Origin: Escherichia coli
GTDB lineage: Bacteria; Pseudomonadota; Gammaproteobacteria; Enterobacterales; Enterobacteriaceae
DNA length: 64,000 bases
Direction: 5' to 3' (one strand)
NCBI RefSeq assembly: GCF_009931435.1
Contig: NZ_CP043414.1
A program made the position numbers. This document shows, piece by piece, positions 27,001-36,000 of this stretch (position 1 is its first letter; every line of letters begins with the position of its first letter).

Positions 27001-30000
27001 CCCCATCCTCAAAGCAGACCTCCGGCGAACCTACGGGCAACAGTAAAATGTTGTCTGTCACGGAAAGATCGGAAAGTCGCGAGCGTAGTCTTGATGCCAC
27101 TTTGTCACCAAAGATCTCATTTGCCTCATGCATACTCTCGCAAATAGTCCTTAACTTCTTGCTTTGAAAGGTAATGAACAAAATTATCCACTTTTATTTT
27201 TCTTGGTTGCTACGTTTATAGCAAACTCAACGCTCATTCACAAAATGAGATGTAGCGAATTAATGGACTCTGCACATATTAAATGTTAATGATGGACTTA
27301 AAATCACGGATTCGTAAGGGAAACATGAAAGGTAAACATCAAGACACTAAAGCCCTGTCTGACGTGCTAGCGGAAATGCAACGGCAGGATGCCAAATGGG
27401 GGGCAGACCGTAATCAAGATCCTTTTATCTGGGGAGCGATTCTCGGAGAAGAGGTGGGAGAATTTCATCAGGCTGTCCTCCATGATCGTTTTGGTGGTAA
27501 AGCAGCCGGTACCAGTAGGGAGGAAGCAGTACAAATTGCTGCTGTTGCACTGCAAATCATCGAATATTATGATCGCGTAATAGATTGATAAATTAGAATT
27601 AATCAACTAAGAGTCTTTTACACGCGAAGATGAACTCTGGCAGCCATCTACCTTCGTGGGCCTGTAGAACACATCTAATTGCAATACTCCCAGTTAATCA
27701 CTAACCAGCCTCTCCAGTAAGGCTGGTCGATTAGGTTTAATTAAACAGATATAACAAGCAATTCACTTGGTATTACGCGGTTCACACAGACTTCTTTAGT
27801 TGTGTCATATCCTATAACTTTCAGAGGCTTATTTACGGTATTATCACGAACGGTGCAAAAGTGGCTCTTCCGCAACCTAGGTGGAGATTTTCATGCCAGT
27901 GGACTCATTACCCTCTGCCTAAGTAGTTCAAATCCGGCTCGACCATACATCAGACGTTTCAGCATCTTCAGGCGATTTACATGACCTTCGACAACACCGT
28001 TACTCCAGCGGCTGCTGGTTGCCTCACATATAGCCGCGGCATCAGCTTCCATCCCCGCAGCCACGCGCCGAAGTTCTGCTGAACCGTTTTCGTGGACTCG
28101 AGTGAACCAACTGCTTAGATTTGATTTATTTGGGGTTTTCAGAATACGGTAGAACTCAAGTACTAGTTGCTGCGCTATTTTCAGCGCCGGTTCTTTTTCA
28201 CACATCAGACTAATAAATCGGGAAGCATAATTTTCTTCACCCCTGATTATTATCCAGGGCATCAACCAGCGGCTTACCCGGGACACTGAAGGAAGTCTGG
28301 CGGCAGTAGTAACTGGTGGGTTCCAGCCTTTACGCCATTTGGCAACAGCATCCCTGACGATGGTTTCACTGCCTGTAACCCCCGGGCCACCATTTCCCGC
28401 CATATCCAGTCGCTGGTGTGCTGAATTGGTCATGTATGAAGGAAGATATCAATGGTGGTATCTCCCTTTCAAAAGGAAGTGAAAAGCTTGATGCCTGCTG
28501 CCAGGCAATCAATATTACGTGCTTTTAACGACTATCCTAAATGGTGGTAGCTATGCAGAGCTCCCGGTCCTAGCGCTGGGAGCTTATCGCTTATCTTTAC
28601 CGTAAGCGTAAACGGACCGCCGTATGTAGCCATTAAACCAGTATTGGTAACGTAGATACCCACCTTTTCAAAAGGGAAGTGGATAAAAGATAGCGAAAAT
28701 GCGAAGAGTTGATTAATGCATTGAAACAAAATTCATTAATGATGAACTTGGAGAAAAGCTCCATCGTTTTATTGGCTCAAAAAACATATCCCATAGATGA
28801 TCAGCCATACCTTCATTGGTTAGCAAGGTATCCTGTGAGTAGCCATGGCTGAAGATGCCCATTGATGGGCGAAAACCAAGGATCTGACCGTTAGAGCAGT
28901 TATGTCGTTAAACACATCACCACCATATGCCATCCGGCTCACTTCGTCGGCCAAATTAGTGTGATATTCTTTCCAGAAATGCTGTTGTATCCACGACATA
29001 AGGCGATGATTGATGGAGCAGTCTCTCAATTTTGAAATGTTGCGCAGCCAGTGGCCGGAACTGGCTGAACTCGCGTGTATGGCGGAACGCTATGTTCACT
29101 CCGATCCGGAAAGTTGTCTGGTCAAGCTGCGCAACTACACTGAATTGATGGTGCGCTGGTTGTATCGTCAGGAGCGGTTGCCGGAAGGTATTAAGGCTAA
29201 TCTTTACGATTTAATGAATGCTGATGTCTTTACCAGCATGATGCCGGAAGCCATCATCATGAAAATGGATGCGCTGCGTATCCATGGCAACCGTGCCGCG
29301 CACGGCGGACGTATCAAAGCTAAAGATACTTACTGGCTGCTCAAAGAAGCGTATTTGTTGGGAATTTGGCTGTATGTTCGCTACGCCCACGGTAATGTTG
29401 ATGACTGCCCCAAATTTACACTCCCTCCATTAACACAATCTTCAGGTCGTGCAGATGAAAAACGTCTGGAAGATGCAATCAGGGCTCAGGATGAAAGCCG
29501 TGAGCGCGAACTGGCGCTGCAACGCGCACTACAGCAAGAACAGGAAAAGGCCGAACACCTCACTCAACGCCTGAATGAAGCCAGAGCGCGTAACCAGCAT
29601 GTTGCCGATATTCTCTCTATTGATGAAGCGGAAACCCGCCGTCGCCTGATTGACTCTCGCCTGCTTGCTGCTGACTGGAATGTAGGCGAAGGCCTTAAAA
29701 ATACCGATCAGGTTACGCAGGAACATCCCGTTAAAGAACAACCTACCGCGACCGGAGACGGTTATGCGGACTATGTCTTGTGGGATGAGGCACACAAACC
29801 GCTGGCGGTGGTGGAAGCAAAAAAAACCAGCGTCAATGCCGAGCAAGGACGAATTCAGGCCCGGCTGTATGCAGACTGGCTGGAAAAAGAATACGGCCAG
29901 CGTCCGATCATCTTCTACACCAACGGCTATGATATCTGGCTGTGGGATGACCATAAAACTCATGGTTATCCCCCGCGTCGGGTGTTTGGCTTCTACAGCA

Positions 30001-33000: not shown

Positions 33001-36000
33001 TCCGCACGATGGTTGAAATGATGGAGCCGAACCCCGCCCGCGGCGAGACGATTTGCGATCCGGCCTGCGGCACCGGTGGCTTTCTGGCAACCAGCTATGA
33101 ATATCTACTGGAGAAGTACAGCTCGCTGGAATCCATTCATACCGAGATTGGCACCAACGAACGTGGTGAGCTGGAAGAGCAAAAAATCTTTACCGGCGAT
33201 CTGTTGACCCCGTGGCGTAACCATGTGGATAACAATATGTTCCACGGTTACGACTTTGACACCACAATGTTACGTATCGCCGCCATGAACCTGATTATGC
33301 ACGGCGTGGAAGCGCCGGATATCCACTATCAGGACACCATGAGCCAGAGCTTCAGCACAAACTTCCCGCAGGCCAGTAAAAACGCTTTCAACCTGATTCT
33401 GGCAAACCCGCCGTTTACCGGTTCACTGGACGAAGAAGATATCGACTCCACGCTGTCGGCAATGGTGAAAACCAAAAAAACCGAACTACTGTTCCTGGCG
33501 CGTATTCTGCAAATGCTGAAAGTGGGCGGGCGCAGTGCCACTATCGTGCCGCAGGGCGTGCTGTTTGGCTCCAGTAAGGCGCACCAGTCACTTCGCAAAA
33601 CGCTGGTGGAAGATAACCAACTGGAAGCGGTGATCAACCTGCCTTCCGGCGTATTTAAACCTTACGCTGGCGTGGCGACGGCGATCCTGATCTTTACCAA
33701 AGGCGGTCAGACGGACGAGGTCTGGTTCTACGATCTGCAAAATGATGGCTACAGCCTGGATGACAAGCGTAACCCAATTAAAGACAACGACCTGCCGCAT
33801 CTGCTGGCAAGCTGGAAGCATTACCGTACTTTACGCGGGCTGCCGGTTGATAACTTTATGGGTGAGAAATTAGCCTCGTTGCTTAAACAGCAGCACCCGG
33901 AAGGGATTGATGTTGGCGTTGATTTTAAAGATCGCACGCAGGCGGCGTTTGTAGTTCCAAAAGAAGATATTGCTGCGCAGAAATACGATCTCTCTATTAA
34001 TCGTTATAACGAAGTGGTGTATCAGGCGGAGGAGTATGAAGATCCGAAGGTGATACTGAAACGATTAAAAGATCTGGAAAAAGAGATTCTGGCGGATCTG
34101 GATGAGCTGGAGGGGATGCTGTGAGTTGTCGTTATTTAAAAATTGAGGATTTTTGTAGCACCGGTAGCGGTGGAACACCCAGTAGGTCAAAGCCTGAGTA
34201 TTATGAGGGGGGAGATATCCCTTGGATTAAATCAGGAGACCTTAAAGATTCAAAAATTTATGAAGCAAATGAGTACATTACAGCCGCAGGGCTAGAAAAT
34301 AGCAGCGCGAAAATAGTTGAGAAAGACTCAATCTTAATAGCAATGTATGGAGCCACTGTTGGTCGCTTAGCAATTTTAGGAATTAATGCAGCCACGAATC
34401 AAGCTATTTGCAATATCAGGCCAGATACGACAATTGCTGATATGAAGTATCTCTATTACTTCTTGAAGAGCAAGTTCAGCTATTTTGTCGAAAATGCGGT
34501 TGGTGGGGCTCAACCTAATATTAGCCAAGGATTGATTAAGTCATTAGAAGTTCCCCTACCTTCTTTAGATGAACAAAAGCGTATCGCAGATATTCTTGAT
34601 AAAGCTGCTGGTGTATGCCAAAAACGCGAGCAAGCTATCAAACTGGCTGATGATTTTTTGCGGGCTAAGTTTCTAGAGATGTTTGGAACTCCTGCAAACA
34701 ACATACATCGTTTCCCGAAAGGAACGATTCGCGACTTGGTTGATTCAGTAAATTATGGAACTTCAGCAAAAGCCTCTATTGATTCTGGTGAATATCCTAT
34801 ATTACGGATGGGTAATATAACATATCAAGGTAGGTGGGATTTTACAGATTTAAAATATATTGATCTCAGTGTAAAAGAAAAGGATAAATATTTGGTTAAA
34901 GAAGGCGATCTTCTTTTCAATCGTACTAACAGTAAGGAACTTGTTGGTAAAACAGCTGTGTATGAAGAAGACAGGCCTATGGCATTTGCTGGATATTTAA
35001 TCCGCGTTAGACCTAATTCTATCGGAAATAACTACTATATTTCAGGGTATCTTAATTCCATCCATGGCAAAATCACATTGATGAATATGTGTAAAAGTAT
35101 TGTTGGCATGGCTAATATTAATGCACAGGAATTGCAGAATATAGAGATATTAATCCCACCTAAGCATCTACAAGATGAGTATGAGATTATTTATAAAAAA
35201 ATAAAAAAAGGACTAAGCATTTATGATAAAAGCGCAATGCAACTTCAACTTTTAGCATCAAACCTATCGAATAAATATTTCATGTAAGGTTCATTATGAA
35301 ATTAACTAAACTTGTACTTGAAAATTTCAGATCTGTTAGAGAGCGGCAGGAAATTGATTTTGCACCTGTAACATTACTATTGGGGCCAAACAGCGCGGGC
35401 AAGACTACTATTTTAATTGCATTATTTTATCTTCAACAAATATTAGACCGTGAGCAGTGTGATCCTATATATTTAGAAGCTATGGGGAACAGGCGCATAG
35501 ATGGATTTAGATCTCTAGTCCATAATGGGGATCTGAATAATGTAATTACTATTGGTATCGGTTTCGATCCTGAACAAACAATAGGTGTAGAATATAAAAC
35601 ATATTTAGAAGAACTTGGTGATATTTTCGATATTCATTTTATAAAAATGAAAGACATTGCAGATGAAACTGAAAAGGTTTATGTAGAATTTAAAATCGCA
35701 TGGTCACAATTGCACAGAGCAGCATATATAAAGAACTATGCTGTTTCTATAAATAATGAATTTATTGGAGAGCTAAGTAATGATGAGTATACTAAATCAT
35801 CTTTAGTAAATAGATTGAACTTTACTCATCCGTTGCTTCTTCCTATTGATTATAATTTATGGCTTGAATCTATTGATAAGGAAGGATTAGATACGATTGC
35901 CAGTGAATTTGAAATATCTTTAAATGACTTAATTCCTGGCTTAGAACGTAATAAAAGTGGTGCAACAGAGCGAGTAAAAACTGTTGATTATATATTTGAA

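Follow-up and report, generated by a model that had tools for sequence, protein, structure and literature searches.

An apparently canonical type I restriction-modification system and a putative Menshen-like ATPase-nuclease pair in an Escherichia coli defence island

The window analyzed here, a stretch of 64,000 nucleotides (nt) from the Escherichia coli chromosome (NCBI RefSeq assembly GCF_009931435.1, contig NZ_CP043414.1), holds an integrative defence island on the setC/yicL-selC side, and within it five co-directional open reading frames (ORFs) were listed on the plus strand, at 29010-32426, 32490-34124, 34121-35287, 35296-36918, and 36873/36918-37814. We consider it very likely that 29013-35287 is a canonical type I restriction-modification (R-M) system, apparently functional as judged from its sequence, and that the AT-rich DNA following the specificity gene hsdS is not a part of this gene and forms a separate two-gene module of an ATPase and a nuclease; the confidence given here applies to these two propositions jointly. 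The original prediction had placed a type I system with the gene order R-M-S at 29010-35287, and three intact hsd genes are indeed found there in this order, annotated as HsdR, HsdM, and HsdS by Pfam, PADLOC, and NCBIfam. The R-M system itself is of a known kind and adds nothing new; the locus is annotated alike by PGAP in hundreds of genomes. Of 5426 complete E. coli genomes, 424 contain its hsdM family and 273 (about 5%) the downstream ATPase-effector pair. A larger figure of 1643 E. coli records, obtained with a 10-kb query, was rejected as the frequency of the family, since other parts of that query also match.

The hsdR gene (29013-32426, plus strand, as are all genes and hairpins of the locus described below) encodes a protein of 1137 amino acids (aa), in which an N-terminal domain of the DUF4145/HEPN family is followed by a coiled linker, a PD-(D/E)XK nuclease, a superfamily 2 (SF2) helicase, and an EcoEI_R_C tail. 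Its translation start is most likely ATG at 29013 and not TTG at 29010, because PGAP uses the former in near-identical genomes and the N-terminus M-x-Q-S-x-N-F-E is kept in homologues. Pfam models for ResIII (5e-35), EcoEI_R_C (4e-21), HSDR_N (4e-9), DUF4145 (4e-8), and also Helicase_C match the protein, the PADLOC model REase_I (PDLC03047, 1107 positions) spans aa 3-1126 with an E-value of 1e-273, and the motifs D253, E268-x-K270, GTGKT (391-395), DESH (481-484), and GRGTR (718-722) are all intact. The hsdM gene (32490-34124) encodes an N6-adenine methyltransferase of 544 aa, matched by Pfam N6_Mtase (1e-60) and HsdM_N (1e-11) and by PADLOC MTase_I (6e-193), with an intact NPPF motif at aa 306-309. 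The hsdS gene (34121-35287, 388 aa) starts with GTG, overlaps the stop of hsdM by 4 nt, and encodes two target-recognition domains (TRDs), TRD1 at about aa 7-160 and TRD2 at about aa 200-360; Pfam Methylase_S matches it in two stretches (3e-42), and PADLOC Specificity_I does so at 6e-125. Between hsdR and hsdM lies a terminator-like hairpin (32439-32458; 8-bp stem with six G-C pairs, followed by a T run), which together with the hsdM/hsdS overlap fits the classical organisation in which hsdR and hsdM-hsdS are separate transcription units (PMC3510504).

The original prediction also described an N-terminal domain of about 150 aa before the nuclease motif, and took it to be extra relative to EcoKI, the type I system of E. 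coli K-12. An N-terminal extension does exist, although some 200-250 aa precede the motif, and the domain search proposed along with the prediction places DUF4145 at aa 25-112 (29085-29348), scoring 33.8 bits against a cut-off of 23.1. Since this passes the gathering score of PF13643, HsdR is a member of the DUF4145 family of the HEPN superfamily. The LR..GN.AAH signature of the domain is located at aa 88-97 (29274-29303), and GN...H is invariant across 15 HsdR proteins from several phyla; the arginine of the catalytic HEPN Rx4-6H motif is R in most sequences and K in two, with a spacing of x7 here and of x6 in EcoKI. A charged helical linker follows, and the nuclease domain begins near aa 200. 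However, the domain is not extra relative to EcoKI, as both HsdR proteins align from residue 1 (BLASTP, 26% identity) and the EcoKI protein has the same series of domains including EcoEI_R_C, with a sub-threshold DUF4145 match at aa 30-107. On the other hand, it is missing from EcoAI-type HsdR, the NCBIfam EcoAI model aligning only from aa 205, and from the Vibrio vulnificus HsdR structure 3h1t, where the alignment begins at aa 200. Because EcoKI HsdR possesses the domain while EcoAI-type HsdR and 3h1t do not, it is a family trait and not a novelty; fusions of DUF4145 with a restriction nuclease and an SF2 helicase were described in 2013 (PMC3710099). A PDB sequence search with the HsdR N-terminus returned nothing useful. 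Apart from this, aa 5-212 (29025-29648) match the PADLOC candidate PDC-M16A (930-aa model) at 1.5e-40, indicating that the module of N-domain and linker is also present in another candidate defence protein.

Base composition changes abruptly at hsdS. The GC content and the GC content at third codon positions (GC3) are 0.514 and 0.587 for hsdR (29013-32426) and 0.509 and 0.609 for hsdM (32490-34124), dropping to 0.366 and 0.301 for hsdS (34121-35287), 0.329 and 0.214 for the ATPase gene (35296-36918), and 0.328 and 0.261 for the effector gene (36918-37814). Thus the statement that hsdS and the downstream DNA are more AT-rich than hsdR and hsdM was correct, and the break is large. It does not follow that a specificity gene was recently swapped. 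EcoKI shows the same composition pattern (GC3 of 0.642, 0.657, and 0.316 for hsdR, hsdM, and hsdS), so an AT-rich hsdS is a general property of these systems and no mark of a recent swap. Nor does AT-richness mark the exchange described below, since TRD2 and the genes after hsdS, AT-rich as they are, do not differ among the three strains compared. Among homologous operons, those in high-GC hosts have all five genes at host composition, and a higher AT content of hsdS and the pair is seen in enterobacteria and certain others.

A specificity exchange did nevertheless take place on a smaller scale. In an island of about 22 kb that is otherwise identical to that of strain RX24, the sole differing segment is a TRD1 cassette running from 34128 to about 34600; protein alignment shows that TRD1 is identical to that of an enterotoxigenic (ETEC) O169:H41 strain and TRD2 to that of RX24, and an hsdS alignment (A3) equates TRD1 with locus L004 and TRD2 with locus L002. 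One half of hsdS is common to about 400 genomes. We are therefore highly confident, as part of the same joint explanation, that TRD1 was swapped via homologous recombination in this lineage and that hsdS is a mosaic of two TRDs circulating separately in E. coli. The swap suggested in the original prediction is demonstrable for TRD1, but it is local, AT-richness is not its marker, and the downstream DNA is a separate module. Such a case represents a change of type I specificity by exchange of a cassette of about 450 bp within an otherwise clonal island. In a distant operon from metagenomes, with 52% identity over the whole of HsdS, TRD2 is the best-conserved part of this protein. Among solved structures no near-identical TRD was found, hence no recognition sequence was inferred. 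Compared with strain S3, the island is the same throughout apart from a tract of 3-7% divergence at about 31000-34000, in the 3′ third of hsdR and in hsdM, which indicates a recombination tract within conserved genes.

The first gene of the downstream module (35296-36918, 540 aa) starts 8 nt past the hsdS stop and encodes an ABC ATPase of the OLD/AAA_15 type with a DUF3696 tail, similar to NsnB of the Menshen defence system. Pfam AAA_15 matches it at 1e-22, and the matching PADLOC models are PDC-M55A (1e-40), NsnB (3e-37), HEC-03B (7e-25), and AriA (5.5e-22). The motifs GPNSxGK, GVG(L/I)(S/T)Q, IEQPELHxHP, ETHSEH, and WPxGFFxER are invariant among its homologues, including a GxG signature and an E-Q Walker B that are degenerate forms of the ABC motifs; NsnB of Menshen likewise has a GxG signature, with EN replacing the DE dyad of Walker B (PMC12065111). 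A PDB sequence search with this ATPase yielded nothing useful. Because only 8 nt separate hsdS from the ATPase gene, with no terminator-like site found between them, the pair is probably co-transcribed with hsdM-hsdS; a terminator-like hairpin with a 12-bp stem (37915-37941) is located about 100 nt past the last gene.

The second gene (36918-37814, 298 aa), which overlaps the ATPase stop by 1 nt, encodes an NsnC-like effector composed of an N-terminal PIN-like domain and a C-terminal PLD/MIT_C-like phosphodiesterase domain (D159, H241-N-R243). The protein has no model in Pfam or in PADLOC-DB 2.0.0, and a word-indexed protein search, which retrieved only relatives of at least 74% identity, suggested an orphan. 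This was overturned by an exhaustive profile search, in which the family comprises 1010 representative clusters (at 50% identity), nearly all of about 300 aa. A 108-sequence alignment from this search gave an AlphaFold2 model with a predicted local distance difference test score (pLDDT) of 97.1, in which the PIN-like and the PLD-type nuclease folds were recognized, while a model from 11 close homologues (pLDDT 48) was discarded. Across the family R243 is invariant, H241 is kept in 98%, and position 159 is acidic in 99%; a conserved PIN catalytic quartet was not found in the family. The D...HxR active-site pattern resembles that of the PB-PLD1/MIT_C domain of NsnC, and the presence of a PB-PLD1/MIT_C-like domain accounts for the stray matches of family members to Pfam MIT_C (4 members) and to a PADLOC BrxL model (16 members); 5 members match NsnC. 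On the strength of the predicted fold, we regard the effector as a putative PLD-type nuclease.

A genome scan with a 15-sequence effector alignment and one peptide pattern, biased to close relatives, retrieved 53 loci representing many phyla. Wherever the upstream DNA could be checked, the ATPase gene immediately precedes that of the effector. Among about 34 informative loci, 18 have hsdR-hsdM-hsdS abutting the pair in the same orientation, the ORFs of hsdS and the ATPase frequently overlapping, and in 6 further loci R-M genes are found 3-6.5 kb upstream of the pair, so that about 70% of informative loci have R-M genes in all. HsdR carries the DUF4145 N-domain in 14 of the 18 abutting loci and belongs to another HsdR family in the remaining four. 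In metagenomes, an effector of 34% identity occurs in the same five-gene operon; other members of the effector family follow hsdS, belong to different defence contexts, or stand by themselves. Five loci devoid of R-M genes have a sigma-54 enhancer-binding activator (Sigma54_activat, HTH_8) directly upstream of the pair (L031 6321-8105, L040 3250-4773, L057 6543-8054, L060 6213-7715, and L063 6386-7894), which suggests that the pair has a second context, one under transcriptional control. Within L031, L040, and L056, two or three copies of the ATPase-PLD pair are arranged in tandem.

The position 3′ of hsdS acts as a variable cargo slot. In other E. coli with the same hsdRM family, one in a selC-type island and three in leuX islands, the slot is occupied by PADLOC candidate PDC-M01 A+B (L004, 10309-12916), by a pair of 582-aa and 88-aa proteins (L005, 10495-12502), by a 228-aa protein (L012, 11349-12035), and by a PIN-domain protein with an 84-aa protein (L013, 11294-12698). 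A gene for a PF06189 5′-nucleotidase also recurs beside this R-M family (L018 7269-8240, L005 12644-13609, and L012 16017-16982), between hsdS and the ATPase gene in Photobacterium and downstream in the E. coli leuX islands.

From the behaviour of the families concerned, a plausible scenario can be drawn in which an M2S complex would methylate a bipartite target and an R2M2S1 complex would translocate and cut unmodified DNA. By analogy with Menshen, PARIS, and Septu, an oligomer of the ATPase would keep the effector inactive via a C-terminal tail, and upon a phage cue the effector PLD nuclease would be released or activated by the ATPase, degrading nucleic acid as a further defensive layer after restriction. 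Several observations weigh against this reading of the locus. The DUF3696 match of the ATPase is sub-threshold, with 18.5 bits against a curated cut-off of 22, and with its E-Q variant of Walker B the protein may bind ATP but hydrolyze it poorly, its role as a switch being assumed. At the residue after HxR the effector has N248, in place of the D or E present in 81% of the family, and its PIN-like domain has lost two acidic positions; given these two changes, the E. coli protein is a candidate nuclease. Promoter-like matches are at chance level, leaving the 8-nt gap and the absent terminator-like site as the grounds for co-transcription. Moreover, no R-M system was found in about 10 of the 34 informative loci, these 10 having at least 8 kb of upstream DNA.

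The original prediction can be read as an atypical type I system, having an unusual gene order, an extra HsdR domain, and an hsdS recently replaced by a foreign AT-rich gene that would confer a new recognition sequence. Consistent with this are the N-terminal domain, which EcoAI-type HsdR and 3h1t do lack, the far higher AT content of hsdS compared to hsdM, and the rarity of the exact hsdS allele (6 of 5426 complete E. coli genomes; 103 contigs). However, EcoKI shares the order, the domain, and the AT-rich hsdS, and the near-identical islands differ in TRD1 only, with TRD2 and the downstream genes identical in three strains. Each of the two half-site specificities is already in circulation, as both TRDs are present in further E. 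coli strains. Taken together, we find the atypical system very improbable, and the canonical system with a separate downstream module is retained.

Accepting this canonical system and its module leaves two ways of understanding why the pair sits behind hsdS. One is functional coupling, in which either the type I complex fills the place of NsnA, the missing sensor of Menshen, or the pair acts as a guard of the R-M system that fires once this is disabled by an anti-restriction protein, for instance a DNA mimic. The five-gene order recurs in Gammaproteobacteria, Desulfobacterota, Myxococcota, Planctomycetota, Binatota, and Acidobacteriota, and it holds at 23-35% effector identity with hsdS and ATPase ORFs that often overlap; all five genes share host composition in high-GC hosts, and NsnA (ParB-DUF262) is nowhere near the pair in the loci checked. 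Guard modules also have precedents in PrrC with EcoprrI and PARIS with Ocr (10.1101/2024.01.29.577857; PMC12839542; PMC12707154). Nevertheless, the loci without a nearby R-M system, several of which have a sigma-54 activator instead, are hard to accommodate, as are the four R-M-linked loci whose HsdR is of another family without the N-terminal domain and the unrelated cargo (PDC-M01, a PIN protein, unknown genes) that the same E. coli hsdRM family bears in the slot; the locus sample with its single peptide pattern and its bias to close relatives also counts against it, and we hold coupling as a tentative possibility. The other is autonomy, the pair being a two-gene defence system in its own right and gaining linked horizontal transfer and expression from a permissive slot 3′ of hsdS, and we give this an even chance. 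It is favoured by stand-alone and tandemly duplicated pairs (L011, L031, L040, L056), by the sigma-54 activator as an alternative upstream partner in five loci, by the variable slot cargo in E. coli, and by the occurrence of ABC-ATPase/nuclease pairs inside R-M, BREX, and Hma loci as a general phenomenon (10.1101/2024.01.29.577857). Against autonomy, the hsdS-ATPase junction is more frequent and tighter across phyla than the loose R-M-type neighbourhood association of 27.9% reported for Menshen.

The boldest form of coupling, that the five genes are one composite immune system spread over at least six phyla with a type I R-M complex standing in for the ParB-DUF262 sensor of Menshen, seems to us unlikely. 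If it were true, the NsnB-like ATPase would read a restriction complex that is stalled, inhibited by a DNA mimic, or engaged on unmodified DNA, the PLD-type nuclease would be released as an abortive-infection backup, and the version linked to a sigma-54 activator would be another form of this effector pair, one triggered through transcription.

As for the genomic setting, setC and yicL lie upstream of the island, and its cargo includes a dGTPase-like HD protein, a thymidylate-synthase homologue with an aGPT-pyrophosphorylase/ADDT gene, an XRE-M78 regulator, a MazG-like gene, and remnants of insertion sequences (IS). The thymidylate-synthase homologue is followed by the aGPT-Pplase3/ADDT gene (Pfam 4.8e-90) at 23852-25773, with minus-strand neighbours at 21140-22393 and 25776-26858. 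Thymidylate synthase and ADDT are enzymes typical of phage thymidine hypermodification, found here on the chromosome near the HD dGTPase-like gene and the XRE-M78 regulator. In related strains, the island terminates at an integrase adjoining tRNA-Sec; in this window IS1 (41898-42416) and a Tn3/Tn21-type mercury transposon take the place of that end, and no tRNA gene is found in the window. Synteny with the related strains stops at the end of IS1, at about 42416, with the Tn3/Tn21-type mercury-resistance region beyond. An imperfect inverted repeat of 31 nt (77% complementary; 34091-34121 and 38127-38157) flanks the AT-rich block of hsdS and the pair; its second arm is inside an integrase pseudogene fragment, and the repeat is probably a chance match. 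An Rfam scan and a repeat search over 26.5-39.5 kb revealed nothing of note.

Compared to EcoKI (type IA, K-12), the locus shows the same transcriptional order of hsdR, hsdM, and hsdS (b4350, b4349, and b4348 on the minus strand in K-12), contrary to the original prediction, and the overlap of hsdM and hsdS is common to both. EcoKI HsdS is 464 aa long against 388 aa here, EcoKI sits in the immigration control region whereas the examples of this R-M family come from selC-side or leuX islands, and unlike EcoKI this locus has extra genes 3′ of hsdS. By sequence, assignments to types IA, IB, and IC were rejected. Type IC systems have the gene order hsdM-hsdS-hsdR, in contrast to the R-M-S order of this locus, and EcoR124I HsdR matches only the helicase core (E-value 1.5e-7). 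For type IB (EcoAI/EcoEI), NF046051 reached 232 bits against a cut-off of 550 and aligned only from aa 205, and for type IA, PRK11448 (NCBIfam) reached 334 bits against 729, the 26% identity to EcoKI HsdR being in the range of 17-33% known between families (PMC2481252). The occurrence of the R-M family in E. coli, Salmonella, Klebsiella, and Citrobacter is compatible with type ID but proves nothing.

The downstream pair, for which no description was found in the searchable literature, resembles several known systems. Menshen consists of NsnA, NsnB, and NsnC (Millman 2022; Li et al. 2025, PMC12065111). Like the ATPase here, NsnB is of the ABC type, ends in a DUF3696 tail, and has degenerate forms of Walker B and of the signature motif, and NsnC (PB-PLD1 type) combines an inactive PIN domain with a PLD/MIT_C-like nuclease domain, the same architecture as that of the 298-aa effector, although the sequence similarity in PADLOC is marginal (E-value 0.003). 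The sensor NsnA (ParB-DUF262, ParBDB) was found neither within about 10 kb of the pair in the window nor upstream of the ATPase in 10 other loci, its position being taken by hsdRMS or by the sigma-54 activator; membership in Menshen proper was hence rejected, counterparts having been found for NsnB and NsnC and none for NsnA. PARIS (AriA/AriB) and PrrC-EcoprrI likewise have an ABC-type ATPase that controls a nuclease effector, in or beside restriction systems as a second layer, and they differ in that the pair here is placed after hsdS and not between hsd genes. AriB is a Toprim/DUF4435 protein, whereas the effector here has a PLD-type fold and no AriB match, and PrrC is an anticodon nuclease fused to its ATPase. 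The ATPase also belongs to the same broad ABC family as those of PADLOC PDC-M55 and HEC-03 (Payne et al. 2024 preprint), a candidate set whose genes were found inside type I R-M, BREX, DISARM, and Hma loci (10.1101/2024.01.29.577857). However, PDC-M55 is a cassette of three families of which only the ATPase model matches here, and partially, and HEC-03 couples its ABC ATPase to a PIN-domain protein similar to VapC ribonucleases (10.1101/2024.01.29.577857). Membership in PARIS or PDC-M55 was rejected as well, neither an AriB-type effector nor the full PDC-M55 cassette being found at the locus. ABC-ATPase/nuclease pairs embedded in or beside restriction-like systems are a well-described theme (10.1101/2024.01.29.577857; PMC12839542; PMC12707154), and the ATPase-effector add-on is a variant of these known defence pairs, Menshen-like without the sensor. 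It links Menshen-type effectors to type I restriction, and the E. coli pair is a tractable case for asking what triggers ABC-ATPase/nuclease pairs and whether they act as guards of restriction systems.

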